NCBI GenBank assembly: GCA_044464765.1
Contig: JBIQKZ010000019.1
Coordinates: 4,759-68,758 of the forward strand
Length of the DNA: 64,000 nt
Reading direction: 5' to 3'
DNA from: Pusillimonas sp.
GTDB lineage: Bacteria > Pseudomonadota > Gammaproteobacteria > Burkholderiales > Burkholderiaceae_B
In this document: piece by piece, positions 16,918 through 52,818 of the stretch
How positions within the stretch are numbered: the stretch's first letter is position 1
How the letters are laid out: the number at the start of each line of letters is the position of its first letter
Translations under genes and position numbers: made by a program
Notes under the pieces: model-generated
The model's input: only the letters and a program-made list of their open reading frames with translations
Told to the model about the DNA's origin: nothing
The model's database searches: none

Positions 16918-16929
16918 CACGGACCGAGT

Positions 16930-20302: not shown

Positions 20303-20384
20303 ATGTTATTTCAGCGTATAAACATCATGTTGTCTGTCGATAAAATACTCATTACCATAGAATAAATGACAGAAAGTTAAGCCT

Positions 20385-23047: not shown

Positions 23048-25014
23048 GCGCCGGCTCCATGGGCCGCCGTGTCTGTTTGGCGCCGGCGGCGTTTAAGCCG
23101 GTAGCGGCGATCACTGATGGCCAGCAGCCCGCCAAGCGCCATCAAGATACAGCCGATCCAGATCCAGTCGACAAACGGCTTGTAGTAGACCCGCACGCTC
23201 CATGACCCATCGCCCAGAGGTTCGCCCAGGGACACGTACACGTGCCGCAGGCCGTTGGCGTCAATGGCCGCTTCTGTCATCGGCATGTCCGACGAAAAGT
23301 AATCGCGTTTCTCGGGGTGGAGTGTGCGCAGGGTTTTGCCGTTCTTTGAAAGCAGCACGTCACCGATTTCCGCCGCGTAGTTGGGGCCTGTTGCCTTGGC
23401 GACCCCGCGGAACGTCAAGTCATAGCTTCCCGCCTGCACCGTAGCGCCGGGTTCCATGCGCAGGTCTTGTTCGGTTTCATAACCCATGACCAGCGTGACG
23501 CCCGTGACGAACACGGCGATGCCCATATGGGCCAGATGCATTCCCAGCCAACTGCGCGGCTGCTTCAGCGGACCGCTGCGGGTGGCGCGCACACGTTGCA
23601 TCACGCCGATGGCCACCGACGCCGCGATCCAGGCCGCCAGGCCCAGTCCCAGCGCTATCAGCACAGACCACCGCCCCAGCAAGAGCGGTGCGCCGATGCC
23701 GACAAAAAGCGCTATCCACGCGGGATGCAGAAGCTGCTTCGTCAAGGCTGCGAACTTTGCCGATTTCCAGTTGGCTGCGGGCCCTATGGCCATGAGCAGC
23801 AGGGCGGGAACCATCAGCGGCACAAAAATGGCATTGAAGTACGGGGGGCCGACCGAAATCTTGCCCAGGTTGAAGGCGTCGAGCAGCAGCGGATACAGGG
23901 TTCCGAGGGTCACGGCGCCGGCCGCCGCGGCCAGCAGCACATTGTTCACCAGTAAGAGAGACTCGCGCGACACCAATGAGAATTGGCCCCCTGTGCTTAC
24001 CTTGGGGGCTCGCAAGGCAAAGAGCATTAATGATGCGCCCACCACGACAGCGAAAAGGATGAGCAGGAACACGCCTCGCCGGGGATCGGTGGCAAAAGCA
24101 TGCACGGACGTCAGCACACCCGAGCGCACCAGAAAGGCCCCCAACAGGGAAAACGAGAACGTGCTGATCGCAAGGAGCACCGTCCAGTTCTTGAAACTGC
24201 CGCGTTTTTCCGTCACGGCCAAGGAGTGAATCAGGGCAGTGCCTACGAGCCAGGGGATGAAGGATGAGTTTTCCACCGGATCCCAGAACCACCATCCGCC
24301 CCATCCGAGCTCGTAATAGGCCCACCAGCTACCCAAGGCGATGCCCAGTGTCAGGAACAGCCAGGCGGCCGTGGCCCAGGGTCGGGACCATCGCGCCCAG
24401 GCAGAATCCAGCTGCCCGGCCAGCAAGGCGGCCACGGCAAATGCGAAAGCCACCGAGAACCCGACATACCCCATATACAGCAGTGGTGGATGAAGTATCA
24501 GGCCGATATCCTGCAGTAGCGGATTCAAGTCCATCCCCTCCATGGCGGGAGGCATAAGCCGCTCGAACGGATTGGAGGTTGCCAGTACAAACAGCAGGAA
24601 CCCGGCGGTGACCAAGCCCAGCACGCCCAGTACGCGCGCCACCATGGCCTCGGGCAGTTGCCTTGAAAAAAAGCTTACAGCACAGGCCCATCCGGTTTGC
24701 ATCAGCAGCCACAACAGCAGCGAGCCTTCGTGGCCGCCCCATGTCGCGGCGATTCGATAGAACCAGGGCAGTTGGGAGTTGGAGTTCTGCGCCACGTAGA
24801 GAACTGAAAAGTCGTTGGCGAAGAACGACCCGCCGAGCGCAATGAAGCTGATGGCCACCAATAGAAGCTGAGCGCGCGTGGCGGGACGCGCGAAGGCGAT
24901 CCAGGCGGCATTGCCACGCGAGGCGCCCGCAAGGGCCAGGCTGGCCTGCGCCAGCGCCACGAATAGTGCAAGGATTAGTGAGAAATGTCCGATCTCGGGA
25001 AGCATGGCGATCAT
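23044..25014 (-). CDS. ccmF: Cytochrome c haem lyase subunit CcmF
   Basis: 656 aa, polytopic, with the WWD motif [12 protein letters not shown]. Confidence 0.93.
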
Positions 25015-25451
25015 AGCCTCCCTGCATTGGTGGCTTTCTCGGCTTCGTTCAAGGCGTGCTGGGCTTCGGGAGGCATGTAGTTTTCATCGTGCTTTGCCAG
25101 TACCTCCTGGGCCAGAAACCGGCCGCCTGACTCAAGCCTGCCTTGTGCCACTACGCCCTTGCCTTCGCTGAATAGGTCAGGGAGTATGCCCGTGTAGCTG
25201 ACGGGTACCGTCTTGGCGTTGTCGGTCACGACGAACTGCACTGTCAGGCCGTCACGTCGTACGCTGCCCGCTTGCACGATCCCCCCGACGCGGAAGAGGC
25301 GTTCCTGAGGAGCCTCGCCCGCATTGACCTGCGTAGGAGTAAAGAAGAACACAAGATTATTCTGGAATGCATTGAGGACGAGCGCCGTCGCAATGGCGAT
25401 GGCGGCCAGCCCGCCTCCAATAAGTAGGATGCGTTGATGGCGCTTCTTCAT
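25011..25451 (-). CDS. ccmE: Haem chaperone CcmE
   Basis: N-terminal anchor and the haem-binding region [12 protein letters not shown]. Confidence 0.93.
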
Positions 25452-25630
25452 TGGACTGTCTCTTTTCGCATGCGCTGCTCGCGAACTGCTTGCAGCAGCG
25501 CTGATCTACGGCGCCGTCCAAGAAGCATCTGTTCGACGCACACAGCGATGATGGACATTCCCATGGCACCCCATACGTATGCACCATAGCCGCCCATGGC
25601 CAGGAATTCAGTTGGACTTGACCATGTCAT
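25448..25630 (-). CDS. ccmD: Haem exporter protein CcmD
   Basis: 60-aa single-TM peptide [21 protein letters not shown]... It is bounded by ATGA overlaps with ccmC and ccmE, and it is only the 3' end of the 283-aa track ORF. Confidence 0.8.
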
Positions 25631-26364
25631 TCTTTCATCTCCTTCAATTCGTTCAGCCACCCGGCATGGCGCTCGCGCTCCAGAATGATGCAGCGCATAC
25701 GTCTTAGTGCGGCGGCGATGGTATACGCCCATGCGGCCAGGGCCATGAGCAGCATGCCGGCCAGCATGAGCGTTGCCATGGACGGGGCGCGTGTCAGCGA
25801 GACTGAGGCCCCCTGATGCAAGGTGCTCCACCACTGGACCGAGAAATAGATAATCGGAATGTTCACTACGCCGACGAGAGCCAGCACGGCAGCGGCCTTG
25901 TCGCCGCGCCGAGGGTCGTCCACGGCCGACTGGAGCGCAATGAAGGCCATGTACAAGAAGAACAGAATCAGCTCTGAGGTCAGGCGCGCATCCCACACCC
26001 ACCAGGCTCCCCACATTGGCTTGCCCCACAAGGCGCCGGTCCATAGGGAGAGAAAGGTGAACATGGCGCCGGTGGGCGCCAGGGCCGATGCCATCATGGC
26101 CGAGAGGCGGCTGTTGAAAACCAGCCCCACTGCGGCCCAGAAAGCCATCACCAAATAGATGAACATCGACATCCATGAGGCGGGCACATGCACGAAGATA
26201 ATGCGGTATCCCTCGCCTTGCTGGGCGTCGGTGGGCGCCATGAAGAAACCTGCGTATAACCCCGCCGCTGTCAACAGGACGGCGGCTGTGCCAAACCACG
26301 GGATCAGGCGTCCGGCAAGCGGATAAAACGTTCTTGGCGATGCATATTTGAACCAGTTGATCAT
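25627..26364 (-). CDS. ccmC: Haem exporter protein CcmC
   Basis: WWD motif WGAWWVWDARLTSE. I placed the start at MINWFKY (26364), although the track start 26388 is possible. Confidence 0.9.
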   Translation of the reverse strand: MINWFKYASPRTFYPLAGRLIPWFGTAAVLLTAAGLYAGFFMAPTDAQQGEGYRIIFVHVPASWMSMFIYLVMAFWAAVGLVFNSRLSAMMASALAPTGAMFTFLSLWTGALWGKPMWGAWWVWDARLTSELILFFLYMAFIALQSAVDDPRRGDKAAAVLALVGVVNIPIIYFSVQWWSTLHQGASVSLTRAPSMATLMLAGMLLMALAAWAYTIAAALRRMRCIILERERHAGWLNELKEMKE

Positions 26365-26374
26365 CTGCTTTTCA

Positions 26375-27058
26375 TTACTCCAGCGCAATCTTCAGCGCGG
26401 CAGCCGTCGCCCAAGGGGCAAAAAACGCGGCCAGCACCAACATCGCTCCCAGCAGCGAAATATTCGCGCCTGTGCGTGCCCCGCCGGTGGCGACGTCAAC
26501 AGCGGCCGTGCCAAAAATCAACACAGGTACGTAAAGCGGCAAAATCAGCAGTGTCAGCAGCACGCTGTTGCTGCGCAAGCCCAATGTCAGGCTGGCTCCA
26601 ATCGCTCCAAGCAGGCTCAGCACCGGGGTGCCGAGCAATAACGAGGCTGTCAGCGCATATAGAGATGAAGGCGGCAGGCCGAATTGCAGTGCCAAAAATG
26701 GCGCCAGCAATGTCAGCGGCAGGCCGGTCAATAGCCAGTACGCGATGACTTTGCCCAATATCAATACGCCTAACGGAGCGGAGGACAGGAGCAGTTGCTC
26801 CAGGGTCCCGTCCAGATAATCCCGTTCAAACAGGCGATTCAACGAGATCAAGGTGGCCAGCAATGCGGCAATCCACAAAATGCCGGGTGCAATCTGTCTG
26901 AGCATGTCTCGTTCTGCGCCAACGCCCAATGGAATCAAGCTAACCACGATGACAAAGAATGAAAGCGAAGTCAGGACTTCGGACTTGCAACGCATGGCGA
27001 CTTTTAAATCATGTTTGATCACTCCATGGAAAGAAGCCAGCCCGAGGGGTGCACTCAT
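26375..27058 (-). CDS. ccmB: Haem exporter permease CcmB
   Basis: 227 aa with six hydrophobic segments, positioned between ccmA and ccmC. Confidence 0.9.
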   Translation of the reverse strand: MSAPLGLASFHGVIKHDLKVAMRCKSEVLTSLSFFVIVVSLIPLGVGAERDMLRQIAPGILWIAALLATLISLNRLFERDYLDGTLEQLLLSSAPLGVLILGKVIAYWLLTGLPLTLLAPFLALQFGLPPSSLYALTASLLLGTPVLSLLGAIGASLTLGLRSNSVLLTLLILPLYVPVLIFGTAAVDVATGGARTGANISLLGAMLVLAAFFAPWATAAALKIALE

Positions 27059-27675
27059 GTGCTTATCCGCATGTGATGCGTTGCATGCTTCAGTTTCATC
27101 TCATGATGCGTTGTGACGGCGGCTATGCCACCACGGCACAGGTGCCGATCTATCGTTTCCGTCACCCATTGGGTGGCTTTGCTGTCCAAGGCGGTCAAAG
27201 GTTCGTCCAATACCCACAAAGGGCGTTTTTGCAGTATTAATCTGGCCAGGTTCACTCGACGCTTCTGTCCTTGAGACAAGAGCCGCGTTGGGAGATTTTC
27301 CTTGCCTTGCAATCCCACCTGATGTAATGCCGTTTGTATCGCACTTGCGCTGGACGTTTCATTCGCCAGGGTCAAGGCAAACTTCAGATTTTCCTCTGCA
27401 TTAAGCTCTTCCTTCAATCCTGATAGGTGGCCCGCGTAAATGAGCCGACATCGGTATTCTTCATCCAAAGGCTTGATCTTGCGCCCATGCCAGTACAGTG
27501 CGCCGGCAGCGGGGGCTGCCAGCCCCACAAGCACGCGGAGCAAACTCGTTTTTCCACTACCGTTGTCGCCATGAATCACCAGGCATTCGCCGGCCTTGAG
27601 ATGAAAGTTCAGGCCATTGAACAAACTGCGATCACCGCGTACACATTCTAGGTTGAGAGCTTTGAGCAACTTCAC
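27055..27675 (-). CDS. ccmA: Haem exporter ATPase CcmA
   Basis: Walker A GDNGSGKTS, ABC signature LSQGQKRR and Walker B LWVLDEP. Confidence 0.92.
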   Translation of the reverse strand: MKLLKALNLECVRGDRSLFNGLNFHLKAGECLVIHGDNGSGKTSLLRVLVGLAAPAAGALYWHGRKIKPLDEEYRCRLIYAGHLSGLKEELNAEENLKFALTLANETSSASAIQTALHQVGLQGKENLPTRLLSQGQKRRVNLARLILQKRPLWVLDEPLTALDSKATQWVTETIDRHLCRGGIAAVTTHHEMKLKHATHHMRIST

Positions 27676-27913: not shown

Positions 27914-29189
<1,276 letters not shown>

Positions 29190-29244: not shown

Positions 29245-31491
29245 CTAGGCCAGACCGTTGGACCGAAATGGACGAGCAGAATTGCCGAGGACCGTCATGC
29301 TGCTCAGAAGCATGGCGACGGCGGCTGCACCGGGGGCGACGCCGATATGCAAGAACAACGCAACGATTGCAACGTTGTAGATGATTGAGAAAAAGAGGTT
29401 TTGATGGATTCGCCGCATGATTTGGCGGGCCATTCGACGTGCCAGGACCACTTGACTCAAGCCGCCTTGCGTGATCACCACACCTGACGCTGAGACGGCG
29501 ATAGCATTTGCGCCATTAATGGCCACGCCACAGTCGGCCGCAGCCAGGACGAGCGAGTCGTTGATGCCGTCACCGACAAAAACAGTGTTACGTCCATGTT
29601 CCTGAAGGATTCGCACTTTGTCGTCCGGCTTGCTGGCTGCGTGAACGTGTTGCGGCGCAAAGCCGAGTTTTCCACCCACCCAGTTTGCTGCCATGGCGTG
29701 ATCGCCTGTTACCAGCAGAGTTCGACAGCCTTCTTTACGCAGGAAGTCCAAGGACACCAGCGAATCGGCTCGAATGCTGTCTTGCAGGTCGATTTGCCCT
29801 TCCCATCGCCCGTTACGGGAAATGTGCACTGTGGCGCTTGGTGCTGGGCCTGTTGCTGGATTAGCGGCTGCTTCCCCCTTCTCGGTGCAGCGCACACCCT
29901 GCCGCTCCAGCCATTTGGCGGCTCCGATCAGCCATGTCGCCCCATCGGGCGCGATATAACGCACGCCGGCCGGATGCCGCTCCACAAGGGGCGTCAGGGG
30001 CAGATCTTCGATTCCACGAGAACGGGCATGCTGGACGATGGCGTTGGCCACGGGATGGGCAACGCCTGTTTCCGCATTCGCGACGACTCGTAGGAGATCG
30101 TCGGGCGCCAGGTGCTCGCTTGTCAGGCGCGCCACTGTCAATTGTCCCGTCGTGAGCGTTCCCGTCTTATCAAAGGCAAATGTGCGGCCTCGCGCCAGGG
30201 CTTCGACACTGGCGGGATCCCTGAACAGGATGCCGGTGCGCGAAGCGCGAGCACTGCCTGCCGAGAATGCCAGCGGCAGGGCAAGCCCGACGGCGCAGGG
30301 GCAAGCTGCGACGAGTACCGAGAGCGAGGCTAGTAATGCGTGGTCGACGGCCATACCCATCCACAGGTGGCGCGTCAGCGCAAGCAGCGATATAGCGCCA
30401 GCCACTGGAAGTAGCCATCGGGCAAATTGTTCGGCGAGTTTTGACGTCGAGGACTTCGCGCCGAACAGCTCAAGCATGCGCAGACCCAGTTTATCGGCAT
30501 ATCTTTCGCCTTGAGCCTTTTCCACCCGCAGCACTAACGGGGCCTGCAGATTCACCATGCCGGCATGCAGGTAGTCGCCGGCGCTGCGCTCCAGCGGCAG
30601 AGATTCTCCCGTCAGCAAAGACGCGTCTACCTGCGACGCGCCTTTTTCTATGAACCCATCGACAGGTATGCGTTCTCCAGCGAGCACGTAGACTAGAGAG
30701 CTCGTCTGAACCGACTCTAGCGCAACGATTTTTTTGTTTCCATCAGGTTGGATGATGCGTGCCGTTTCCGGCATGAGCTGACGCAACGCATTGATCGCGA
30801 CCATGTTGTGCTTGCGTGCCTGGATTTCGATCAACCGCCCCACCAACAGGAAGGTAATGAGCATCGTGGCGGCATCGACGTATACGGCGGGCGAATTTCG
30901 AGAGAGGTTCCACAGCGACAGCAATAAGGAGCCCCAGACGCCGAGCGATATGAGGGCATCCATGCCGGGAACGCCGGCTCGCACGGTTTTCCAGCCCGCC
31001 CGATAAAAATCGAGGCCGCTGTATAGAACCACCGGCAGGCTGAAAATGGTTGCGGTCCAGCCTACCAGCAAGGCATCGATGCCGGCCACGGCCTCGATGC
31101 CAAAGTAAAGCATCCAGGACCCCAGCATGCTCCACATGCCGAAGAAGGCGGCAACGATCAACTGCAGCCGTATCCGCGATGCTTGTTTTTCCAGAGACAG
31201 GTTCACCTCGTTGTCGTCCAGCAGCGGCGACATTTCGTAGCCTAGGCCCTGCACCCGATCGAAAAGCTTTTGAAAGTCGAAGCGCGCCGGTTCCCACCGA
31301 ACTAAGGCGGAGCCGGAGGTGAAGTTTACGTTGCTGTCCAGCACTCCCGGCGCTTTGTCGATGACGCGCTGCACCGCCATGGCGCAACTGGCGCAGAACA
31401 TGCCGCGGACGGAAAAAATCATGCGCCCGGCGGGGCGTAGGGACTCCAGGTCCAATGTGTTGGCAGCAGTGGCCGTTGTCGTCGACTGCAT
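29245..31491 (-). CDS. Heavy-metal (Cu+-type) P1B ATPase. A CcoI/CopA2-like role is suggested by context
   Basis: N-terminal HMA domain with CASC, TM CPC motif (VAACPCAVGLALP), DKTGTLT phosphorylation site and GDGINDS. ATG 31491 follows RBS GGAGGG. Confidence 0.88.
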   Translation of the reverse strand: MQSTTTATAANTLDLESLRPAGRMIFSVRGMFCASCAMAVQRVIDKAPGVLDSNVNFTSGSALVRWEPARFDFQKLFDRVQGLGYEMSPLLDDNEVNLSLEKQASRIRLQLIVAAFFGMWSMLGSWMLYFGIEAVAGIDALLVGWTATIFSLPVVLYSGLDFYRAGWKTVRAGVPGMDALISLGVWGSLLLSLWNLSRNSPAVYVDAATMLITFLLVGRLIEIQARKHNMVAINALRQLMPETARIIQPDGNKKIVALESVQTSSLVYVLAGERIPVDGFIEKGASQVDASLLTGESLPLERSAGDYLHAGMVNLQAPLVLRVEKAQGERYADKLGLRMLELFGAKSSTSKLAEQFARWLLPVAGAISLLALTRHLWMGMAVDHALLASLSVLVAACPCAVGLALPLAFSAGSARASRTGILFRDPASVEALARGRTFAFDKTGTLTTGQLTVARLTSEHLAPDDLLRVVANAETGVAHPVANAIVQHARSRGIEDLPLTPLVERHPAGVRYIAPDGATWLIGAAKWLERQGVRCTEKGEAAANPATGPAPSATVHISRNGRWEGQIDLQDSIRADSLVSLDFLRKEGCRTLLVTGDHAMAANWVGGKLGFAPQHVHAASKPDDKVRILQEHGRNTVFVGDGINDSLVLAAADCGVAINGANAIAVSASGVVITQGGLSQVVLARRMARQIMRRIHQNLFFSIIYNVAIVALFLHIGVAPGAAAVAMLLSSMTVLGNSARPFRSNGLA

Positions 31492-31507
31492 GGCGTGATC
31501 AGCCCTC

Positions 31508-32605
31508 CTATTCCGTGCCCCCGCCGACGATCTTCCCATTCACTTCTTTGCCATAGAAGCTTTCCTCTCCATCGTGGAATTCGACGCGCGCCTCTTCGAG
31601 GGTTCCGGTCTGACGGGGATCCTTGGGGCGTTCGTGGCTGTCGACGAAAGCAGCAACGTCCCAAGCTTCCTGGTCGGTCAGCGAGAATGGCTTGCCTAGC
31701 GGCATATTCGCCTTGATGAAGCCGGCAGCCGTATCGATGCGCGCCATGCCCGCGCCCCAGTTGTAGGAGTTCGGACCCCAGAGCGGCGGAAACACCACAC
31801 CGCTGTCGGGATCTCGTTGGCCCTGGCCATCCGCGCCATGGCACAGGGCGCAGTTCTGCGCGTAGACCGTCTGTCCGCGCATCACGTCGTAGTCTTCTTG
31901 GGGCTTTTTGAGCTTGGGATAGCCTGAACCGGGTAATTTCTCTCCCGTGGACGCACCATCGGCCATCCAATAGAAGTAGGTCGTCAGGTCGCGGTAGATG
32001 TCGCTCCCGGCTGGTGGAGGCTGGCCCGACGGCGAGCCCTGTGCATTCATTGAATACGTGAAGCAGCCCTTAATGCGGTCCTCAAGAGTGCTGATTGACT
32101 TTGTCTTGCTTCGGTACGCTGGATAACGCACATAGGCGCCCCACATAGGAGCTGAGTTTTCTCGGCGTCCGGCATCAAGGTGACAATTGACGCAAGCGAG
32201 CGTATTGCCGACGTGGTCAGACACCATGGTCGACGGTTCCATGAAGATGGCGCGGCCTCGCTTGATGGCGTCGCCGTAGGGACCGTCAGGAATGCTGTCC
32301 TCCAATGGGGGAGAGTAATAGCCATCGGCACCGACCGGCATGCCGGCTGTGGGTGCAGCCCTGTCTGCATTGTGTGTCTTGCGGTCGGACTCCATGGCTT
32401 CACGTGTGTAGACCTGGCTGCCGATCTGGGTAATGCCGCCTTTCTCGGAAGTGAAAGAGAGCGACATCAGGCCGCTGTCATGAATCAGGTAGCCGGCGCC
32501 GAACAACAGGATACCCAACCCCGCGCTCCAGGCTAGCCGTCGGGTGCCGGACAACCGCTTGGGAGTGCCGGATTCGTGTCGGTCCGAGGAATGGTTTTTT
32601 GTCAT
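31508..32605 (-). CDS. tsdA: Dihaem cytochrome c, TsdA-like (thiosulfate dehydrogenase / tetrathionate reductase family), with an N-terminal membrane anchor
   Basis: Motifs CVNCH and CALCH, EDRIKGCFTYSMN (candidate Cys axial ligand region) and FIKANMPLG (Lys/Asn/Met region). The hydrophobic stretch LAWSAGLGILLFGAGYLI lies near the N-terminus. Confidence 0.65.
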   Translation of the reverse strand: MTKNHSSDRHESGTPKRLSGTRRLAWSAGLGILLFGAGYLIHDSGLMSLSFTSEKGGITQIGSQVYTREAMESDRKTHNADRAAPTAGMPVGADGYYSPPLEDSIPDGPYGDAIKRGRAIFMEPSTMVSDHVGNTLACVNCHLDAGRRENSAPMWGAYVRYPAYRSKTKSISTLEDRIKGCFTYSMNAQGSPSGQPPPAGSDIYRDLTTYFYWMADGASTGEKLPGSGYPKLKKPQEDYDVMRGQTVYAQNCALCHGADGQGQRDPDSGVVFPPLWGPNSYNWGAGMARIDTAAGFIKANMPLGKPFSLTDQEAWDVAAFVDSHERPKDPRQTGTLEEARVEFHDGEESFYGKEVNGKIVGGGTE

Positions 32606-32620
32606 CTTGGCTCTCTATGC

Positions 32621-33439
32621 TTAATTAGCGGCGCCGGTGCCCTGTCCCGGCAAGGACGCCGCGTAATTGGATACCGCATACAGATCCTGGTAGGACAGTC
32701 GGCTTGCGATGTCGTCCATCAAGGATTGCGGTGAGTTGTGCCGGTGACCGCCCTTCCATGCCGCCAACTGGCTGAACAGGTACTCGGGTTGTTGCGCAGC
32801 CAGGGGCGGGAAGGCTACGCCCACGCCTTGTCCCTGGTCCCCGTGACAGCTGACGCAGGCGGGCACGTCCAGTTTCCAATCGCCTTTTTCGAACAGCATG
32901 TGGCCTCTCTCCATGTCGGCATCGGAGTGCGGCAGCATCAACTGGGGGGCAGGCAGACTCGCGTAGTAGGCAGTCACTTCAGCAATATCTTGAGCCGTTA
33001 GTTCGCGCGCCACGTAGTGCATGGATTCGTTGATGCGGTCTTCGGAAGCGAAGTCGCGTAACTGCTTGGCGAGGTAAGCTTCGTTCAGGCCGGCAAGGCG
33101 GGGAGTGTTGCCAGCACCTTCTCCTTGATCGCCATGGCACGATGCACAGCTCCACACGCTTCCTCGGCCGGCATGGACCAGCTCGGGCGCATCCTGCGTC
33201 ACTACGGGGGTAGGTACTGCGGGCGTTACCGGCGCGACTGGACCGCTGGCGACCGTGTCGGGCGAGCCGGAGTCCGTCCATGGAGCCAGGTCGCTCAGAT
33301 ACATGCCGACGCCAGCGAGCGCCAAAGCAATCAGAACCGCAAGCAGGAAGATGGGAATCGGGCGGGGCGGCTCCCAGGGTTCGAACGTGGGGTCGATGTC
33401 GTCGACTCGGGGCATTGTCGAGTGGTGATTGGTTTTCAT
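32621..33439 (-). CDS. Membrane-anchored dihaem c4-type cytochrome (CcoP position; TsdB-like)
   Basis: One TM segment (IPIFLLAVLIALALAGVGMYL), a Pro/Thr/Val linker, and CASCHGDQGEG plus CVSCHGDQGQG. ATG 33439 follows AGGA. Confidence 0.7.
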   Translation of the reverse strand: MKTNHHSTMPRVDDIDPTFEPWEPPRPIPIFLLAVLIALALAGVGMYLSDLAPWTDSGSPDTVASGPVAPVTPAVPTPVVTQDAPELVHAGRGSVWSCASCHGDQGEGAGNTPRLAGLNEAYLAKQLRDFASEDRINESMHYVARELTAQDIAEVTAYYASLPAPQLMLPHSDADMERGHMLFEKGDWKLDVPACVSCHGDQGQGVGVAFPPLAAQQPEYLFSQLAAWKGGHRHNSPQSLMDDIASRLSYQDLYAVSNYAASLPGQGTGAAN

Positions 33440-33446
33440 GGCGTTC

Positions 33447-34100
33447 CTAACCCGAATGTCCGTCCGCTGCCGCCGTTTCCGGACGGCGGTCATATCCGCG
33501 GTCTCTTTTCTGCAATTCCTCATGGCTGGCCGGATAGGTGCGATCCAGGCTCAGCAGGTATTCGACGAGATCCAACGCTTCTTTGCGAGCCACGACCACC
33601 CGCCCGTCTGGCGGCTGGAACTGCGCGGGTAGACGCACCACGACGTCGTCCCGCGCAGCTTCATCCTTCACTTCGAACATATAGGGGTACGAAGGCATGA
33701 TGCTCCAGTCGAAGATGACGCGCGGCTGGTACAGGTGCGTCAGATGCCAGTCGCGGCTTTTCAGGCGTGCGCCGACATTGAGCAGGTCGGGGCCGGTACG
33801 CATGGTGCCCAGCAGGTGGGGCGTGTCGTAGAAATAGTCTCCCGGCGTCGAGGCGCGGCCCCAGCCGCGGGCGCCATCGAACAGTGTTTGACCCGTGGAA
33901 CGGGGCTGCTGGCTGTGGCAATAGATACAGCCGTTGGCGACGTACTGTTGGCGCCCCAACAGCTGCTGCTCGGTGTAGGGCTGGAGCTGCGCTGGCGGTT
34001 GCGATGTGCGAAGCTGCCAAGCGGGCAGAATCACCAGCATTAGTGTGGCGAGCAGCAAGACGCCAATTGCGCCAATGAGAAGTGGCAAAAGTTTGTTCAT
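33447..34100 (-). CDS. ccoO: cbb3-type cytochrome c oxidase subunit II (CcoO/FixO-like, monohaem)
   Basis: N-terminal anchor, GCIYCHSQ haem site and the GPDLLNVGAR motif. It overlaps ccoN by 4 nt. Confidence 0.8.
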   Translation of the reverse strand: MNKLLPLLIGAIGVLLLATLMLVILPAWQLRTSQPPAQLQPYTEQQLLGRQQYVANGCIYCHSQQPRSTGQTLFDGARGWGRASTPGDYFYDTPHLLGTMRTGPDLLNVGARLKSRDWHLTHLYQPRVIFDWSIMPSYPYMFEVKDEAARDDVVVRLPAQFQPPDGRVVVARKEALDLVEYLLSLDRTYPASHEELQKRDRGYDRRPETAAADGHSG

Positions 34101-35692
34101 GACGCTTTCACAGGAGCGAACGTATCGACGGACTTGGTGCTCGATTCTTTTTTCAGTAGCAGCAAGGCGAAATGTGCGGCAAAGACGAAGTGGCCCAAGG
34201 TCATCAACGTGCCGCCGATGGAGCGGCCTTCAAGATAAGGAATCATCGACCGGGTGATTTCGGCAAAGCTAGATCCTGGGTCCATCAACCCCATGCCTTG
34301 CAGGACGCCAGCGACGGTCAGTGAGACGAAGTAGATCGTGAATCCGATCACCACCAGCCAGAAATGCGTTTGCACCAGCTTCGGGTAGGGCCAGCGCCGG
34401 CCAAGGATGTGCGGCATCATGTAATAGAGAGTGCCAAATAGCACAAGCGAGACGAAGCCATAGGCGCCCAGGTGCGCGTGTCCGACGGTGTAATGGGTGA
34501 AGTGAGTGATCGAGTTGACCGAACGTATCGCCTCGATTGAGCCCTGGAAGGAAGAGAGGGTGTACATCAGCGCGCCGATCCATACGAACCGGAGCGACAT
34601 TGACTGCTTGAACGCCCATATGTTGGTGGCGACAGTGACGTGCTGGTTGATCGCCACCGCGATCACCGGCACAAACATCATGATGCTGTGGACGACGGAA
34701 AGGGTTACAGCCCAGGTCGGGATCGGTCCGCCCATCAGGTGGTGGATACCGACCTGGCTGTAGAACAACGCCAGGCTCCAAAAACCGAGGAGCGAGACGT
34801 TGTATGAATACACCGGTTTGCCGATGATCTTGGGAATAATGTAGTAGGCCATTCCAACGCCCATTGGCGTCAGCCACAATCCCAGCACATTATGCGCGAA
34901 CCACCAGTTCACCGTCGCCTGCTGGGCCCCGATGTGTAGGCCAGGAATGTTCGCCACCAGAAAGAGGAAAGGGAACCACACCATGCCGGCTAAGAAATAC
35001 CAGCCGGATACATAGATGTGGCGTGATTTCCGACGAGCAGCGGTCTCAATCGCAGGCCAGGCAAGGAAGAAGCCCCCCAATGCAAGCACCAAGTCGATTT
35101 GCCAAGGGAACTCCAGCCACTCAATGCCATCCGACCAGCCGTTAGCGACGGCGATTGTTCCACCCAAAACACCCAGCGTCCAAAGAAAGGCCCCAAGATA
35201 GGCCATGTTGGGCCGTCGCAGCGGCGTGTGAAAGATTCGTGGCAACAGCCATAAAGCCACGCCGATGCCCGTGACCGAAAGCCAGCCATAGGCAACGATA
35301 TTCAGATGTAGTGTGCGTGCACGGCCAAAAGTGATCTGTGCAACATCTGAGAGCCAATCTGGCCAGTGCAGTTTCAAAGATGCAATGACGCCGAACGTCG
35401 AGCCTATCAGTAGCCAGAGAATGCCAGCTGTGATTAGAACCAGAACTGGGCCCTTCCCGGCGTGATCGATGCCAGCTCGCAATACGTCGAACCGATGTGA
35501 TTCGGCCTCGTTCTTTTTACCAAAAGAGGCGCTGTCATCGGGATGGCCGAGCTCTCCTTCCATGAAAATCGTGGAGGCTTCGGCTTTACCCACGAATATC
35601 AACTTATTGGCAACAGCCCAGACGAGAATGCCCAGCGCCACCAATGAAGCGACAAAGCTTGTCGCTAACAAAGTTCCCAGTATAGGTGTCAT
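34097..35692 (-). CDS. ccoN: cbb3-type (C-family) haem-copper oxidase subunit I (CcoN-like) with an extra N-terminal helix
   Basis: Histidine motifs WWFAHNVLGLW, GIHHLMGG and HYTVGHAHLGAYGF, with 12+ TM segments. I chose ATG 35692 over the TTG at 35770. Confidence 0.82.
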   Translation of the reverse strand: MTPILGTLLATSFVASLVALGILVWAVANKLIFVGKAEASTIFMEGELGHPDDSASFGKKNEAESHRFDVLRAGIDHAGKGPVLVLITAGILWLLIGSTFGVIASLKLHWPDWLSDVAQITFGRARTLHLNIVAYGWLSVTGIGVALWLLPRIFHTPLRRPNMAYLGAFLWTLGVLGGTIAVANGWSDGIEWLEFPWQIDLVLALGGFFLAWPAIETAARRKSRHIYVSGWYFLAGMVWFPFLFLVANIPGLHIGAQQATVNWWFAHNVLGLWLTPMGVGMAYYIIPKIIGKPVYSYNVSLLGFWSLALFYSQVGIHHLMGGPIPTWAVTLSVVHSIMMFVPVIAVAINQHVTVATNIWAFKQSMSLRFVWIGALMYTLSSFQGSIEAIRSVNSITHFTHYTVGHAHLGAYGFVSLVLFGTLYYMMPHILGRRWPYPKLVQTHFWLVVIGFTIYFVSLTVAGVLQGMGLMDPGSSFAEITRSMIPYLEGRSIGGTLMTLGHFVFAAHFALLLLKKESSTKSVDTFAPVKAS

Positions 35693-35832: not shown

Positions 35833-35930
35833 AGGTGAGGAACGGGTGAGCAAAGCCCGAAAGACTGTTAAGATTTTTGCTTGATAGAGAGTTCAGAGAA
35901 TGTTTAGCGCCGGTACGCAAGGAGAATGAA

Positions 35931-36608
35931 ATGCATATTTTGCTCGTCGAAGACGATCTCCTCGTCGCGAGCGGTATCGTGGCGGGATTGAGATTGCATG
36001 GTCTGACGATCGACCATGTGAGCACGGCTAACTTGGCGGATGCTGCATTGGCGACGTCATACTTTGATGTATGCATCCTTGACCTTGGGTTGCCGGACGA
36101 AGACGGAATGGTGTTACTGCGCCGCTGGCGCGAAGAAGGTCGTGATCTTCCCGTTCTCGTGTTGACGGCACGTGACGCACTCAGTCACCGTGTGGAGGGG
36201 TTACTTGGAGGGGCCGACGATTACCTGGTTAAACCTTTCGACTTGGATGAGTTGCAGGCTCGATTGCACGTACTGACGCGCCGGGTCGCAGGTCGTGTCA
36301 CCGACTGCATGAATCACGGGGAACTGAAGTTCTGTTCGTCAACAGGCCGAGTATGGCTAGCCGATAAGCCGGTTACGCTGGCACGCCGTGAGCTGTCATT
36401 GCTGCGCGCGTTGTTGCAGAATCCTCAGGCCATCCTTAGCACAGAACAGCTTTGTGATAGCGTCTATGGTTACGAGCAGAACGTGGAAAGCAATGCGATC
36501 AACGTCCATATTTATCATTTGCGCCGCAAGCTTGGAAACAATATTGTCGAAACAGTGCGTGGACTCGGTTATAGGCTTGGCTCAACCGAGAAGGTAGCGG
36601 AAACATGA
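35931..36608 (+). CDS. OmpR-family response regulator (PmrA/QseB/BasR-like)
   Basis: Receiver domain (LLVEDD, ILDLGLPDEDG, LVKPF) plus a winged helix (NAINVHIYHLRRKLG...VRGLGYRL). RBS AAGGAGA precedes the start. Confidence 0.92.
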   Translation: MHILLVEDDLLVASGIVAGLRLHGLTIDHVSTANLADAALATSYFDVCILDLGLPDEDGMVLLRRWREEGRDLPVLVLTARDALSHRVEGLLGGADDYLVKPFDLDELQARLHVLTRRVAGRVTDCMNHGELKFCSSTGRVWLADKPVTLARRELSLLRALLQNPQAILSTEQLCDSVYGYEQNVESNAINVHIYHLRRKLGNNIVETVRGLGYRLGSTEKVAET

Positions 36609-37963
36609 GTCTGCGGCTGCGCCTTCTGCTGTATATCGGTATTTCGCTGACTGCGCTTTGGACTTTGGTGGCGACCTGGATGTTCATTGACGCCCGTCAG
36701 TCGTTAGGCCAGGCATTGGACAACCGTCTGGCGGCGTCGGCACGAATGGTTGCCGGGCTGGTTTCTCAATTTCCCGAACCTCAAGATATTGCCGCAATGG
36801 GTGATAAGCCATTGGACGTCGTCGCCCGAGATGGGGTGGCGTGCGAAGTAAGCCTTGTGCGCAGCGAAGTCGTGATTGAAACCGTGGCACGTACGGCAGG
36901 CAGCCCTGAACTGATGCACGCTGATCCAGGCTTCAGCACCTATACATACGGTAATAAGCGATGGCGCACTTATGTACTGCGGCAGGGCGATGTTCAGATC
37001 GCCACCGCCGACAGCATCGAGGTCAGAGAGGCATTGGTCAAAGAGTTGATCCTTTCGGCGGGGGTGCCGTTCGTTGTCGCCTTGTTTGGCACCCTGATCG
37101 TGCTGTGGTTGGGCATCACCCGTGGACTGGCGCCTGTAGAGCGTATCCGCAGCCTTCTGGCACGGCGCCGACCCGGCGACGATAGCCCGTTGCCGGAAGT
37201 GAAGGCCCCGATAGAGTTACAGCCGCTCTTGCATACGATTGAGCAACTTTTGGAAAGGCTGCAGGATGCAATCGTGCGAGAACGCCGATTCACCGATAGC
37301 GCTGCGCACGAATTGCGTACGCCACTTACCGGTGTGAAAACACACATTCAAGTAGCGAAGCTTGCACTGCAACGGCGAGAGGAAAGAGCCACGATGGAAG
37401 CTGCGCTGACCAACGCAGACCAAGGGGTACAGCAGCTGCAAAATATCCTTCAGCGTTTGCTTGATCTGGCGCGGTTAGAAGGCCATTCCATCGCGAAGGA
37501 AGCTAGCGACCCGATTGAGGCGGCATCCATTGCAATTGAGGCATTGAAGCCAATGTACGGTGACTCTGTGGCTAGAATATCGGTACAAGGGGTTGACAGC
37601 TCGCGGTCGGTACGCGCTGCGCGGCCACTTCTAGTTGGGGCCATCCAAAACCTAATTGATAATGCAATACGCTACGCACCCCCCGACACTCCCATTACAA
37701 TTCGCCTGGAGCCGCAAAGCAATGGCACCATGCAAATTAGTGTGCTGGACGAAGGCGCTGGCCTGAATGCGCAAGAGCGGGTTCAAGCAGTTAATCGGTT
37801 TTGGCGTGGAGACCCCAAAATACCCGGCTACGGACTAGGCCTATCTATTGTGAACGCGATTGCATGCCGACATGCGGGTGCATTCGAGCTTCTGGAACGC
37901 GATGGCGGCGGGCTGGAAGCGCGACTTACGCTTCCAATAGCGGACGATACTACGCTTTCTTGA
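36605..37963 (+). CDS. Sensor histidine kinase (PmrB/QseC-like architecture)
   Basis: Two TM segments flank a periplasmic domain of about 130 aa. H-box SAAHELRTPLT, N-box NLIDNAIRYA and G-box GYGLGLSIV are present. It overlaps the regulator by 4 nt. Confidence 0.92.
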   Translation: MSLRLRLLLYIGISLTALWTLVATWMFIDARQSLGQALDNRLAASARMVAGLVSQFPEPQDIAAMGDKPLDVVARDGVACEVSLVRSEVVIETVARTAGSPELMHADPGFSTYTYGNKRWRTYVLRQGDVQIATADSIEVREALVKELILSAGVPFVVALFGTLIVLWLGITRGLAPVERIRSLLARRRPGDDSPLPEVKAPIELQPLLHTIEQLLERLQDAIVRERRFTDSAAHELRTPLTGVKTHIQVAKLALQRREERATMEAALTNADQGVQQLQNILQRLLDLARLEGHSIAKEASDPIEAASIAIEALKPMYGDSVARISVQGVDSSRSVRAARPLLVGAIQNLIDNAIRYAPPDTPITIRLEPQSNGTMQISVLDEGAGLNAQERVQAVNRFWRGDPKIPGYGLGLSIVNAIACRHAGAFELLERDGGGLEARLTLPIADDTTLS

Positions 37964-38039: not shown

Positions 38040-39890
38040 TTGTCTGTCTACCGGATTGCCCGTGCGGCTCTCGTACTGTTTTGTTTTGCCGTCGGAAACG
38101 CCTGGGCCAGTAACGGTCTATTCTCGTCGGCCACGGAACCCGAATTTCTTGAAGCCTCGGATGTATTCAAGGTAGAGGAGGTGAAGCAGCAAGGCCGAGA
38201 GTATATAGTCGAAGGGCATATTGCCGACGGCTATTATGTCTACCGCCACTCGTTGAAGCTGGTCGACGACAAAGAGAATGCTGTTGATCTGGCTCTGCCT
38301 TCTGGAACGCCCCGGCACGACGAGTTTTTTGGCGATACCGTCATCTACACCGGCGATACGGCCCGTCTGCGCTTCCCGACGGCTGTAACTGGCCCACTGA
38401 CACTGCATTGGCAAGGCTGTGCAGAAGACGGTATCTGCTATCCACCGCAGACGATACAGATCAGCGCGCCAGTAGCAACAGCGGTAGCTGACGGTCAGGC
38501 TGTCGAGCAGCCGCCTCAGGCATCGGAACCTGAATCAGCCTCGGAGCGCGGGCCTGATTCGGCCGGCATGCCTTCGGGCGCCAGCGTTGGCGAGGATCAG
38601 GCGGCTGCTCAGCGGCTTGCTGCGCTGGGGCCTATCGCCGGCACGCTGCTGTTTTTCGGATTCGGCCTATTGTTGGCTTTTACGCCCTGCACTTTGCCGA
38701 TGATTCCCATCGTTTCCAGTATGGTCGTTGGTAGCCAGGCCAAGCCGCGTCGGGCTTTCGTCTTGTCGTCGTCATACGTCCTGGCGATGGCGGGTACCTA
38801 CGCCGCAGTGGGGGTGGCGGCCGGACTGGCGGGCGCCAATTTACAAGCCACGCTGCAGTCGCCTTGGTTGCTCGGCGCCTTCGCAGCACTCTTTCTCATC
38901 CTGGCCAGTTCGCTATTCGGTCTGTTCGAGTTGCGCTTGCCATCCGCTGTGATGAATCGCCTCCAGGCAGCGGGGCCTGCTCGTTCGGGGGGGAGTATCA
39001 CCGGTGCGGCGGTGCTGGGTTTTCTGTCGGCGCTTTTGGTTGGTCCATGCATGACGGCTCCCTTGGCGGGTGCGCTGTTGTACATCGGGCAGACGGGCAG
39101 TGCGATCCAAGGGGGACTGGCTTTGTTTGCGCTGGGTCTGGGTATGGGCCTGCCATTGTTGGCCATTGCAGTGTTCGGCGCCCGTGTGCTGCCCAAGCCC
39201 GGTGCGTGGATGGATCGGGTGCGCGTCGCCTTCGGCTATGTCATGGTTGGCATGGCAGTGATGATGCTGACACGTTTCCTGACCGGCACGATGAGCCTGT
39301 TGCTCTGGGGGGCCTGGATACTGCTGGTGGCGGTGGGGCTCGTCGCTTGGGCGCAAGCCGTTGCGAACAGGCAGCGGTTGGCGTGGAGCTTGCGTTCGGC
39401 GGCGGCATTCATCGGTCTGTGGTCTGTCCTGATGCTTGTGGGCGCCGCTTCAGGGGGCGACGCCATCTTGCAGCCTCTGGCGCATTTGCGTGGCGCGCCC
39501 GCTGCGGTTGAGGCATCCGCCCAGGTCAGCTATGTCCAGGCGAAATCAGTGGCCGATGTAGATGCTCGCCTCGCGGAAGGCGCCGCGCGCGGTCAGTGGA
39601 CCTTGATTGATTTCTACGCCGACTGGTGCGTCAGCTGCCATGTAATCGAGCGCAATGTATTCGGCGATCCAGCGGTTGCGGCGCGACTGGCGCGCATGCA
39701 GATCGTGCGGCCCGACGTGACGCGTAATGACGCTACGGACAAGGAACTGCTCAAGCACTGGGGCGTCATGGGGCCGCCCACGCTCATACTGGTGGGGCCG
39801 GATGGTACGGAGCGACGGGATCTGCGCGTGGTGGGTGAGATCGGCGCGCGCGAGTTTCAGGACCGCCTGGACGCGGCGGGGGTGTCATGA
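38040..39890 (+). CDS. dsbD: Thiol:disulfide interchange protein DsbD
   Basis: TTG start after AGGAG. It has a periplasmic N-domain, a TM core with FTPCTLPMIP and GPCMTAPL, and a C-terminal thioredoxin fold DFYADWCVSCH. Confidence 0.9.
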   Translation: MSVYRIARAALVLFCFAVGNAWASNGLFSSATEPEFLEASDVFKVEEVKQQGREYIVEGHIADGYYVYRHSLKLVDDKENAVDLALPSGTPRHDEFFGDTVIYTGDTARLRFPTAVTGPLTLHWQGCAEDGICYPPQTIQISAPVATAVADGQAVEQPPQASEPESASERGPDSAGMPSGASVGEDQAAAQRLAALGPIAGTLLFFGFGLLLAFTPCTLPMIPIVSSMVVGSQAKPRRAFVLSSSYVLAMAGTYAAVGVAAGLAGANLQATLQSPWLLGAFAALFLILASSLFGLFELRLPSAVMNRLQAAGPARSGGSITGAAVLGFLSALLVGPCMTAPLAGALLYIGQTGSAIQGGLALFALGLGMGLPLLAIAVFGARVLPKPGAWMDRVRVAFGYVMVGMAVMMLTRFLTGTMSLLLWGAWILLVAVGLVAWAQAVANRQRLAWSLRSAAAFIGLWSVLMLVGAASGGDAILQPLAHLRGAPAAVEASAQVSYVQAKSVADVDARLAEGAARGQWTLIDFYADWCVSCHVIERNVFGDPAVAARLARMQIVRPDVTRNDATDKELLKHWGVMGPPTLILVGPDGTERRDLRVVGEIGAREFQDRLDAAGVS

Positions 39891-40720
39891 GCGGCATTGG
39901 TCCATTTCCTATACAGGTCGTCACGGTTATTGCCGCCGTACTGCTGGCTTGGTTGACAGCACGAATTGTCGGTCGGCGGACGCCCGATGTGCCTTACAAA
40001 GCCGCCGGATCAATGATTCTTGACGCCGTGGTTTGGGGGCTCTTGACTGCACGCTTGGCATACATTGCGCAGTGGTGGGAGGAGTACTCGGCCGCACCCA
40101 GATCCATGATCGCCATCGGCGATGGTGGATTTGTCTGGTGGGTCGGCGTGTTGGTGGTCGTTGCTTACATCTGGCAGCGAACCCGGTCCGCTCAGATCTT
40201 GCGCGTCCCCGTGCTGGCGGGCGTCATGGTCGGCGTCGTCGCATGGGCCCTCGCGGGCGGGGTGCTCGCTTTATTGCTGCGCTCCGCGCCGCCTTTGCCG
40301 GACCTGCAGCTGGCGACGCTGGACGAACACCCGGTTTCACTGAGCGAGTATGCGGGGCGCCCCATCGTACTCAATCTTTGGGCGAGTTGGTGCCCGCCAT
40401 GCCGACGCGAGATGCCGGTGTTTGAGCAGGCTCAGACCGATTTTCCGGATGTGGCCTTCGTGTTGGTTAACCAAGGGGAAAGCGCGCAGCAGGCGCAGGC
40501 TTTTCTTGAAAGCGAGGGTTTGAGTTTGACGGATGTTTTACTTGACCCCGCTTCCGAAGCCATGCGCACAATGAACTCGCGCGGCTTGCCCACCACCTTG
40601 TTTTTCGATGCGCAAGGGCGCCAAGTGGACATGCATTTGGGCGAGATCACCATGCCCAGTCTCAAGGACAAGATGCTGCGTCGTTTCGACCTATCTTCCG
40701 GCTCGGGGGCCGAAAAATGA
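39887..40720 (+). CDS. TlpA/ResA-like thioredoxin domain fused to an N-terminal 4-TM domain
   Basis: Residues 1-130 are hydrophobic (four helices, AIGDGGFVWWVG). The C-terminal domain carries WASWCPPC. It overlaps dsbD by 4 nt. Confidence 0.82.
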   Translation: MSGIGPFPIQVVTVIAAVLLAWLTARIVGRRTPDVPYKAAGSMILDAVVWGLLTARLAYIAQWWEEYSAAPRSMIAIGDGGFVWWVGVLVVVAYIWQRTRSAQILRVPVLAGVMVGVVAWALAGGVLALLLRSAPPLPDLQLATLDEHPVSLSEYAGRPIVLNLWASWCPPCRREMPVFEQAQTDFPDVAFVLVNQGESAQQAQAFLESEGLSLTDVLLDPASEAMRTMNSRGLPTTLFFDAQGRQVDMHLGEITMPSLKDKMLRRFDLSSGSGAEK

Positions 40721-41268
40721 TAACCAAGCTTACACCGGCTTTACGCCTACCCATTCTTATTGTCGTCACCCTCGTGCTGATGGCGGGCTGCAATCAGACA
40801 GACAACGCAGAAAACTCCTCAACAGCACGGGGATTGGAAGCCGACAAGCTGGCGCAGCAGGCCGCGCTGCGTTTGCCGGACTTGCAGCTAATGACGCTGG
40901 AGGAGCGTCCCGCCCACTTGAGTTCGTATGTGGGGGTGCCGGTCGTGCTCAATCTTTGGGCGACTTGGTGCCCACCATGCCGGCGCGAGATGCCGGTGCT
41001 CGAGCAGGCCCAGACGGCATTTCCCGACATTGCCTTCGTCTTGATCAATCAGGGGGAAAGCGCGCAACAGGCTAAAGCGTTTCTTCATAGCGAAGGTCTG
41101 AATTTGAAGGATGTTCTGCTCGATCCACCGTCCAAGGCGATGCAGGAAATGCGAACGGGAGGCTTGCCTACTACCTTCTTTTTCGATGCACAAGGGCGCA
41201 TGGTGGACTTGCATTTAGGCGAGATCACGATGAGCGATCTCAAAGACAAGATATCACGCCATTTTTGA
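40717..41268 (+). CDS. TlpA-family thiol-disulfide oxidoreductase lipoprotein (paralogue of the preceding domain)
   Basis: Lipobox LMAGC and WATWCPPC. 98 of 131 aligned residues are identical to the upstream gene's C-terminal domain (manual count). Confidence 0.85.
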   Translation: MITKLTPALRLPILIVVTLVLMAGCNQTDNAENSSTARGLEADKLAQQAALRLPDLQLMTLEERPAHLSSYVGVPVVLNLWATWCPPCRREMPVLEQAQTAFPDIAFVLINQGESAQQAKAFLHSEGLNLKDVLLDPPSKAMQEMRTGGLPTTFFFDAQGRMVDLHLGEITMSDLKDKISRHF

Positions 41269-41303
41269 CCATTCATCGAACCCAGTACGGATAAGGAACG
41301 ACT

Positions 41304-42077: not shown

Positions 42078-42125
42078 TGGATCATCTGAGTACAGACGTA
42101 CGGAATTATGTGTCAGGCAGAGGGC

Positions 42126-42929: not shown

Positions 42930-43003
42930 CCGTTCGTAGACTGGTGTGCTGTTGCGAACGTGCTTCAGCGCCCATTTCTTTAATTATGGATAAAGGGAGT
43001 TCA

Positions 43004-44371: not shown

Positions 44372-44398
44372 AGTGACCCACATTCATAGGAGCCGCTT

Positions 44399-44905: not shown

Positions 44906-45056
44906 AAGAAATGTGTGCTCGCACGGGTTGCCATGGCTATTAGTCAAGAATGGCAAGCTTGAGGCCTCCTAACGAAGTAACACGATGCTCTAGCTTTCGC
45001 GTTCCCTATATAGCGTGGCCTTCGATTCGCAAACTGCTTGATTTAACTTCCTAATT

Positions 45057-45383: not shown

Positions 45384-45402
45384 CTGTGTGTCCATCCGGC
45401 AT

Positions 45403-52807: not shown

Positions 52808-52818
52808 AGGATGACGCC

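Follow-up and report, generated by a model that had tools for sequence, protein, structure and literature searches.

Genes at the locus and the oxidase core

A 64,000-nucleotide (nt) stretch of contig JBIQKZ010000019.1 from Pusillimonas sp. (assembly GCA_044464765.1; hereafter the window) carries on its minus strand a compact operon encoding a CcoN-like and a CcoO-like subunit of a cbb3-type oxidase, a TsdB-like dihaem cytochrome, a TsdA-like thiosulfate dehydrogenase and a P1B-type ATPase, here called the ccoNO-tsdBA module. The initial annotation had described these five genes, and this observation is confirmed: they lie at the positions given in Table 1, with a 4-nt overlap and then gaps of 7, 15 and 16 nt, and their translations contain the quoted motifs of CcoN and CcoO (WWFAHN, IHHLMGG, GHAHLGAYG and CIYCH) and of the other cytochromes and the ATPase (CASCH, CVSCH, CVNCH, RIKGCFTYSMN, CALCH, KANMPLG, CPC and CASC). 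The tight gene string does not end at the ATPase but continues into thioredoxin (trx) and thioredoxin reductase (trxB) genes, down to 27914; trx and trxB are found likewise in loci L001 and L020. Neither ccoP nor ccoQ is present within the 64-kb window, as had been claimed, because a scan of every open reading frame (ORF) for CxxCH yields just three c-type cytochromes (CcoO, the TsdB-like protein and TsdA), the remaining CxxCH-containing ORFs being out-of-frame or thiol-redox proteins such as DsbD. In addition, no ccoG or ccoH was found among the window ORFs that were scanned.

Table 1. Features of the window, with position, strand and basis of assignment
Feature	Position	Strand	Basis and remarks
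ccoN-like	34097-35692	minus	ATG start fits N-termini of orthologues; longer TTG ORF to 35770
ccoO-like	33447-34100	minus	4-nt overlap with ccoN
Dihaem cytochrome (TsdB-like)	32621-33439	minus	7-nt gap to ccoO; longer ATG ORF to 33523
TsdA-like	31508-32605	minus	15-nt gap to dihaem gene
P1B ATPase	29245-31491	minus	16-nt gap to tsdA; longer ATG ORF to 31539
Thioredoxin (trx)	28872-29189/29237	minus	ORF and spacing; identity by reading translation
Thioredoxin reductase (trxB)	27914-28867	minus	ORF and spacing; identity by reading translation
ccmA-I, cytochrome c maturation system I	21214-27675	minus	Pfam and ORFs; 238-nt gap to trxB
OmpR-type response regulator and sensor kinase (2CSK_N sensor domain)	35877-37963	plus	Pfam; divergent from operon
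DsbD, two TlpA/redoxin-like proteins, DsbC/G-like protein	38040-42077	plus	Pfam
Left backbone of integrative and conjugative element: parA, DUF2840, traF-like S26 peptidase, DUF3363 relaxase	6700-11256	plus	Pfam
Right backbone of integrative and conjugative element: traG coupling protein, trbB, trbE, trbL, trbG (CagX), trbI	48627-60297	plus	Pfam

Relatives of the operon were sought in one genome per species with the clade-specific peptides NWWFAHN and FYSQVG[IM]H, which gave at least 580 genomic stretches encoding relatives; all counts of loci refer to the best 80, which were fetched. The window CcoN matches COX1 in Pfam (2e-79) and is much closer to solved CcoN chains (2.6e-64) than to NorB (7.8e-7), but it is divergent, sharing 33% identity with P. 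stutzeri CcoN1 and falling below the TIGR00780 equivalog cut-off (255 versus 583 bits). The ligand residues of CcoN hold up on alignment with solved CcoN chains; residues are numbered here as in P. stutzeri, and conservation was counted over 73 orthologous loci. Equivalents of the six His ligands of haem b, haem b3 and CuB (H60, H207, H257, H258, H345 and H347) are invariant, as are the cross-link Tyr251 of helix VII, the Ca-site Glu122 and the K-channel-analogue residues T215, Y223, S240, N289 and Y317. Two positions are non-canonical, H243 being replaced by Gly at all 73 loci and E323, which lies near the haem b3 ligand, by Gln at 69. The monohaem subunit II, CcoO, matches FixO (1.8e-31; Pfam) and solved CcoO chains (~5e-25), and retains CIYCH together with the Met ligand in MPSYP.

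CcoN begins with an extension of ~80 amino acids (aa; 35450-35692, minus strand), comprising one membrane helix and an acidic tail, which is absent from the part of P. stutzeri CcoN1 covered by the alignment. The window copy alone matches the FixS/CcoS family PF03597 weakly (E=0.25), whereas matches were obtained for 6 of 18 CcoN orthologues (best 7e-4), a single one of which, P0110, exceeds the gathering score (24.4 versus 23.1 bits). This resemblance to CcoS suggests that a CcoS-CcoN fusion is typical of this oxidase clade. The ATPase scores 428 bits against TIGR01525, contains HMA, E1-E2 and HAD domains, and displays in its translation the P1B-1 signature (CPC, YN and MLLSS, of the MxxSS type) with an N-terminal HMA domain. 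It lies directly downstream of tsdA in ~60 of the 80 loci and co-diverges with CcoN (r=0.905); by analogy with CcoI/FixI, its proposed role is to provide the oxidase with copper. The module thus seems to bring its own equivalents of CcoS and CcoI.

TsdA and the putative TsdB-type third subunit

Membership of the TsdA family, proposed from motifs in the initial annotation, is borne out by alignment with characterised structures. The protein matches the SoxA/TsdA domain PF21342 (37 bits versus a cut-off of 27), the TsdA domain of M. purpuratum TsdBA (5LO9; 2.9e-90) and A. vinosum TsdA (~1e-54), and equivalents of Cys96, His53, His164 and Met209 align with those of 4WQ7, 4V2K and 5LO9. It has two CxxCH motifs, with Cys (in RIKGCF) at haem 1 and Met at haem 2, both conserved in orthologues, and R[IVL]xGCFxYSMN occurs in every TsdA copy whose length covers this region. 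As in the M. purpuratum enzyme, Asn takes the place of Lys208. In all TsdA orthologues long enough to be judged, a hydrophobic stretch comes after a polar N-terminus of 17-40 residues. TsdA is probably tethered by an N-terminal signal-anchor. The accompanying linker had been put at about 100 aa, which is overstated: 97 aa separate the membrane segment from the first haem motif, but the TsdA fold starts before that motif, from about residue 87-100, and the true linker is therefore ~45-55 aa. A Tat signal ('TRRLAW') was considered and rejected, as alphaproteobacterial orthologues do not conserve the twin arginine and the export of c-type cytochromes goes through Sec.

The predicted conversion of thiosulfate to tetrathionate by this TsdA is supported by gene disruptions in other strains. 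Pusillimonas ginsengisoli SBSA no longer oxidised thiosulfate once its single tsdA was disrupted, and a gene termed 'cytC' precedes tsdA (preprint). Deleting tsdA in Paracoccus thiocyanatus SST left the strain unable to form tetrathionate and cut its thiosulfate-dependent O2 uptake by 40-50%, and the gene upstream of tsdA was called 'cbb3 subunit III-like' (preprint). An adjacent oxidase is mentioned in neither preprint. The reference strain of P. ginsengisoli (L003) encodes CcoN, CcoO, TsdB, TsdA and ATPase with 94-98% protein identity to those of the window, and the 'cbb3 subunit III-like' description fits locus L059. From the species, the gene order and the 321-aa annotation, the disrupted genes appear to be the tsdA of this locus type (L003 and L059). 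The SBSA gene is annotated at 321 aa, corresponding to a start at the internal Met47; because this start would leave a periplasmic cytochrome without an export signal, the longer ORF is the more plausible.

The dihaem protein lies after ccoO and directly upstream of tsdA, where a c4-like TsdB gene is expected, and thus occupies both the ccoP and the tsdB slot, as previously noted. Among solved structures it matches the TsdB domain of M. purpuratum TsdBA most closely (3e-35), with cytochrome c4 at 3e-25, whereas CcoP reaches 8e-5 and TIGR00782 gives 38.8 bits against a cut-off of 180. It is therefore not an ordinary CcoP, though its anchor is CcoP-like. Instead of the cleavable signal peptide of a soluble TsdB, the protein carries the cytoplasmic motif [FY][ED]P[WYF]E..(R)xIP and, after it, a single membrane helix, an arrangement found in 75 of 79 orthologues and represented in the window by FEPWE..RPIP; the cytoplasmic part of this anchor spans ~25 aa. 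A signal-like N-terminus of TsdB is confined to the split variants L069, L076 and L081.

For comparison with this anchor, CcoP N-termini were taken from solved structures (GHAFDGIEEYDNPLPRWW plus a helix). In a profile-profile comparison, the invariant anchor Glu aligns with CcoP Glu49, the residue proposed as the entrance of the proton channel. The likeness between the anchor and CcoP is suggestive, and three observations count against it: the 70.7% probability returned by hhalign for the anchor versus the CcoP N-termini is partly driven by the membrane helix, a PDB profile search with the anchor motif did not retrieve CcoP, and Pfam gave no match to FixP_N in the dihaem protein. Because the dihaem domain fits TsdB far better than CcoP, yet the anchor is weakly CcoP-like, the protein reads, judged from its sequence, as a CcoP/TsdB hybrid.

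Three forms of the third subunit were found among the orthologous loci. In Halomonas korlensis (L081) and Spiribacter (L069), the anchor and one haem are encoded by a separate gene of ~220 aa after ccoO, and TsdB is the next gene, with its own signal-like N-terminus (L081, 4530-6004; L069, 4699-6101); Marinobacter probably has this split variant too. In Alphaproteobacteria (L059, L021, L034 and others), the anchor-monohaem part and TsdB are fused into a trihaem protein of ~410 aa, and in Betaproteobacteria, including the window, the anchor is joined straight to the TsdB dihaem domain. These forms look like a domain fusion-and-loss series, and the three architectures indicate that the anchor is an oxidase-associated module to which TsdB has been tethered in most lineages. 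The CcoNO-type enzyme belongs to a distinct clade of C-family oxidases, without CcoP and CcoQ, with a FixS-like part apparently fused to CcoN, with altered residues close to haem b3, with a TsdB-type putative third subunit and with a co-encoded substrate dehydrogenase.

Distribution, genomic setting and horizontal transfer

The linkage of tsdA to ccoNO, suspected from the window, recurs in the gene-neighbourhood survey, in which the order ccoN-ccoO-tsdB-tsdA, mostly with 4-nt overlaps, is found in 76 of the 80 loci from Alpha-, Beta- and Gammaproteobacteria. Of the remaining four loci, two are cut short where the contig stops and two lack tsdA, namely Marinospirillum insulare (L040) and an alphaproteobacterial metagenome-assembled genome (L074). 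L040 retains the ATPase and has a rhodanese-like gene and a ferrochelatase gene downstream, and an RND efflux pair lies downstream in L074. CcoN homologues with 57-90% identity are present in many genera. The taxa represented range over Alcaligenaceae, Oxalobacteraceae, Pseudomonas, Halomonadaceae, Marinobacter, Xanthomonadales, Spiribacter, Caulobacterales, Sphingomonadales, Hyphomicrobiales and Rhodobacterales. Massilia sp. X63 has two copies of the whole module on separate contigs (L019 and L027). Approached from the tsdA side, the search found homologues in Halomonas korlensis (51% identity) and Ramlibacter (54%) within the same cluster type. The four-gene core is conserved across classes, whereas its neighbourhood varies. 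When pairwise distances are compared, CcoN correlates with CcoO (0.92), TsdB (0.90), TsdA (0.83) and the ATPase, and the correlations between module proteins span r 0.79-0.92, so the set has diverged as a unit.

The operon was initially placed on an integrative and conjugative element (ICE), and Pfam matches agree with this, as relaxase, traF and parA genes lie to its left, traG and trb genes lie to its right, and the cargo sits between the relaxase and traG. This is the backbone layout of a Tn4371-type ICE, whose integrase and attachment sites probably lie beyond the window. Three ORFs of the backbone regions, at 4241-5263 (minus), 5390-6727 (plus) and 62717-63991 (minus), encoding 340, 445 and 424 aa, had no Pfam match. 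Near-identical modules in different genera point to recent horizontal transfer. The module of Pseudomonas paraeruginosa ATCC 9027 (L015) is identical to that of Pigmentiphaga kullae (L016) over 6.35 kb (100% nucleotide identity), a type whose CcoN is 70% identical in protein to that of the window; the modules of Pusillimonas caeni (L002) and Allopusillimonas ginsengisoli (L003) likewise share 100% nucleotide identity; and five alphaproteobacterial genomes of different genera or families (L034, L035, L042, L043 and L045) share 95-96%. According to a review, genes for dsb functions, cytochrome c biogenesis and an 'oxidase' are found on PAGI-2, and L015 and L016 may represent a PAGI-2-type island, although L015 could not be confirmed as PAGI-2 itself. 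In a megablast comparison of the operon with plasmids, weak Paracoccus matches were the only ones, with no annotated near-identical record.

Genes for cofactor maturation and regulation adjoin the operon. In the ccm set, CcmH, CcmI-TPR and a CcmG-like redoxin are supported by Pfam matches, ORFs for ccmA, ccmB and ccmC are present, and ccmF and ccmE were assigned from size and position alone. The divergent OmpR-type regulator and sensor kinase at 35877-37963 are the candidate regulator of the operon, and homologues of this pair lie within 10 kb of the module in ~40 of the 80 loci and also in L081. The DsbD, TlpA-like and DsbC/G-like genes, which are co-located with the module in many loci, make up a periplasmic route that supplies reductant for maturing cytochromes c and copper sites. 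The first of the two TlpA/redoxin-like proteins encoded there (39887-40720, plus strand) has an N-terminal membrane domain weakly matching prolipoprotein diacylglyceryl transferase (LGT); the same redoxin and LGT-like combination adjoins the module in Halomonas korlensis (L081), and homologues occur near many other loci. Further along the plus strand (42108-47091) are genes for a TauE/SafE sulfite-exporter-family protein, a pyridine nucleotide-disulphide oxidoreductase, a DUF302 protein and an apolipoprotein N-acyltransferase (Lnt). As called, the ORF of the oxidoreductase runs too far into TauE, and its true start is probably near 42930-43020; a second Lnt on an ICE is unusual. The left cargo (11271-21167) is unrelated to respiration and encodes LysR, a short-chain dehydrogenase/reductase, a ChrR-like cupin, a flavin amine oxidase, a zinc-dependent alcohol dehydrogenase, a DUF2938 protein, two MFS transporters and an AraC regulator.

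A candidate thiosulfate-to-oxygen respiratory chain

The operon probably encodes a self-contained thiosulfate:oxygen respiratory chain, in which electrons would pass from TsdA through TsdB and CcoNO to O2, and the interpretation offered in the initial annotation is supported. Facing the periplasm, TsdA would turn two thiosulfate into tetrathionate at its His/Cys-ligated haem and pass the electrons to the TsdB-type dihaem domain, which, because it is fused to a CcoP-like membrane anchor, would take over the role of CcoP as third oxidase subunit. The electrons would then move through the haem c of CcoO and the haem b of CcoN to the b3-CuB centre, where O2 would be reduced and a proton-motive force generated. 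Transfer from TsdB to CcoO is inferred from architecture and synteny, and the module proteins may also assemble physically. In addition, the P1B ATPase would deliver Cu(I) for CuB, like CcoI, the FixS/CcoS-like N-terminus of CcoN would help cofactor insertion, and the adjacent ccm, dsbD, TlpA-like, trx and trxB genes would see to the maturation of the three c-type cytochromes. The potential of the tetrathionate/thiosulfate couple is near +200 mV, so electrons would enter only at the level of cytochrome c, and the dedicated proton-translocating oxidase would consequently be the sole coupling site. Since the whole set is carried on a Tn4371-type ICE, a recipient would gain thiosulfate-driven respiration in one transfer. 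A more specific proposal, advanced tentatively and with somewhat greater doubt than conviction, is that TsdA, the CcoP/TsdB hybrid, CcoO and CcoN form one membrane-bound thiosulfate oxidase that works without the quinone pool, the bc1 complex or soluble carriers, has remodelled active-site surroundings (E323 to Gln, H243 to Gly), and passes from genus to genus as a plug-in module that brings its own genes for cofactor maturation.

Parts of this route have been anticipated, as earlier studies describe TsdB as the natural acceptor of TsdA and propose direct donation from TsdB to cbb3 oxidases. The operon itself had been thought to be without known counterpart, and no description of a ccoNO-tsdBA operon was found in the full-text literature searched, from which subscription journals are largely absent; tsdA genes of what appears to be this locus type have already been studied by knockout, in work that overlooks the oxidase. 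A study of Spiribacter states that no TsdB homologue is present, contrary to locus L069, in which a TsdB homologue adjoins tsdA. Published annotations thus miss parts of the module, namely the tsdA start in SBSA and TsdB in Spiribacter.

Several points weigh against the proposed chain. No experiment ties the oxidase to thiosulfate oxidation. A promoter and terminator scan gave no excess over shuffled expectation and leaves the operon boundaries undefined. In L040 and L074, ccoN, ccoO and the anchored dihaem gene are present in the absence of tsdA, and the oxidase can therefore exist without a co-encoded TsdA. Conversely, an orphan tsdA of this clade stands beside a transposase fragment in Pandoraea sputorum (L084 and L085), where it is apparently the remnant of a disrupted module. 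The ATPase gene is missing at the loci of Alcaligenes and Thioclava. In addition, tsdBA is reported with no oxidase next to it in Halomonas titanicae and in Vibrio parahaemolyticus, the Vibrio genes standing beside ttr.

The main rival, which is unlikely though not negligible, is a general-purpose cytochrome c oxidase, whose c4/TsdB-type third subunit would be fed by bc1 or a soluble pool, with TsdA as one donor among several that shares the operon for convenience. The two tsdA-less loci are what this explanation would predict, and cytochromes c4 have been reported as donors to cbb3 oxidases. Against it, tsdA follows the dihaem gene directly and with translational coupling in 76 of 80 loci, TsdA co-diverges with CcoN, and the nearest relative of the dihaem domain is the TsdB part of a natural TsdBA fusion. 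The other explanations, namely mere co-location, nitric oxide (NO) reductase and tetrathionate reductase, are weakly supported. It is very improbable that the genes form a periplasmic redox and metal-homeostasis island without a direct electron-transfer link, the ATPase being a copper-efflux resistance pump: the surrounding cargo is rich in thiol-redox and maturation genes and the ATPase passes only generic P1B thresholds, but the four-gene core is kept across classes while its neighbourhood varies, 4-nt overlaps are typical, and the ATPase diverges in step with CcoN. Least probable of all is an enzyme that does not reduce O2, either because it has NO reductase or other chemistry, for which the non-canonical Gln and Gly of CcoN might speak but which was rejected on the invariant CuB His ligands (three), cross-link Tyr and K-channel-analogue residues and on the greater similarity to CcoN than to NorB, or because the system runs towards tetrathionate reduction, for which the reported bifunctionality of some TsdA enzymes might speak but against which stand the inability of an oxidase to donate electrons to TsdA and the thiosulfate oxidation shown in vivo by the knockouts.

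The proposed thiosulfate-to-oxygen chain combines features of several known systems. Like canonical cbb3 oxidases (CcoNOQP; P. stutzeri 3MK7 and 5DJQ), the module has the haem b, haem b3 and CuB ligands, the cross-link Tyr and most K-channel-analogue residues, the CxxCH and Met ligand of CcoO, the ccoN-ccoO order, a third membrane-anchored dihaem subunit, and a Cu ATPase and candidate FixS-like element that may serve assembly. It differs from them in its divergent CcoN (33% identical and below the TIGR00780 threshold, with both active-site substitutions), in lacking CcoQ, ccoG and ccoH, in the apparent fusion of the FixS-like part to CcoN, in a TsdB-type third subunit without Pfam FixP_N, and in a dehydrogenase gene within the operon. 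TsdBA systems (A. vinosum TsdA, M. purpuratum 5LO9, and those of T. intermedia, P. stutzeri, Halomonas and Vibrio) share with the module the position of tsdB immediately upstream of tsdA, the His/Cys ligation of haem 1, the His/Met ligation of haem 2 and, as predicted from sequence, the conversion of thiosulfate to tetrathionate; the Asn at position 208 is found in both the M. purpuratum and the C. jejuni enzymes. Unlike those systems, the module has a TsdB with a cytoplasmic motif and membrane helix in place of a signal peptide and a TsdA with a long polar N-terminus and hydrophobic anchor, and its genes lie inside an oxidase operon rather than standing alone or beside ttr. The caa3-type and kindred oxidases tether a donor cytochrome c to the terminal oxidase, as is proposed for the module, but caa3-type oxidases belong to the A family, carry a monohaem domain fused to subunit II and have no co-encoded substrate dehydrogenase. 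Among PAGI-2- and Tn4371-type ICEs, PAGI-2 reportedly resembles the window in having dsb, cytochrome c biogenesis and 'oxidase' genes as cargo, which reviews describe in generic terms without mention of a link to thiosulfate.

Oxidation of thiosulfate to tetrathionate is widespread in heterotrophs and pathogens, and the route of its electrons to O2, from TsdB to a cbb3 oxidase, has so far been a hypothesis. The ccoNO-tsdBA module, which is apparently widespread, mobile and overlooked, offers a genetically defined candidate answer in many proteobacteria, namely a dedicated oxidase with TsdB as its third subunit. Because genetic systems exist in two species with this locus type, the idea is directly testable. 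If it is correct, a whole respiratory chain, together with its maturation machinery, can move between bacteria on ICEs.

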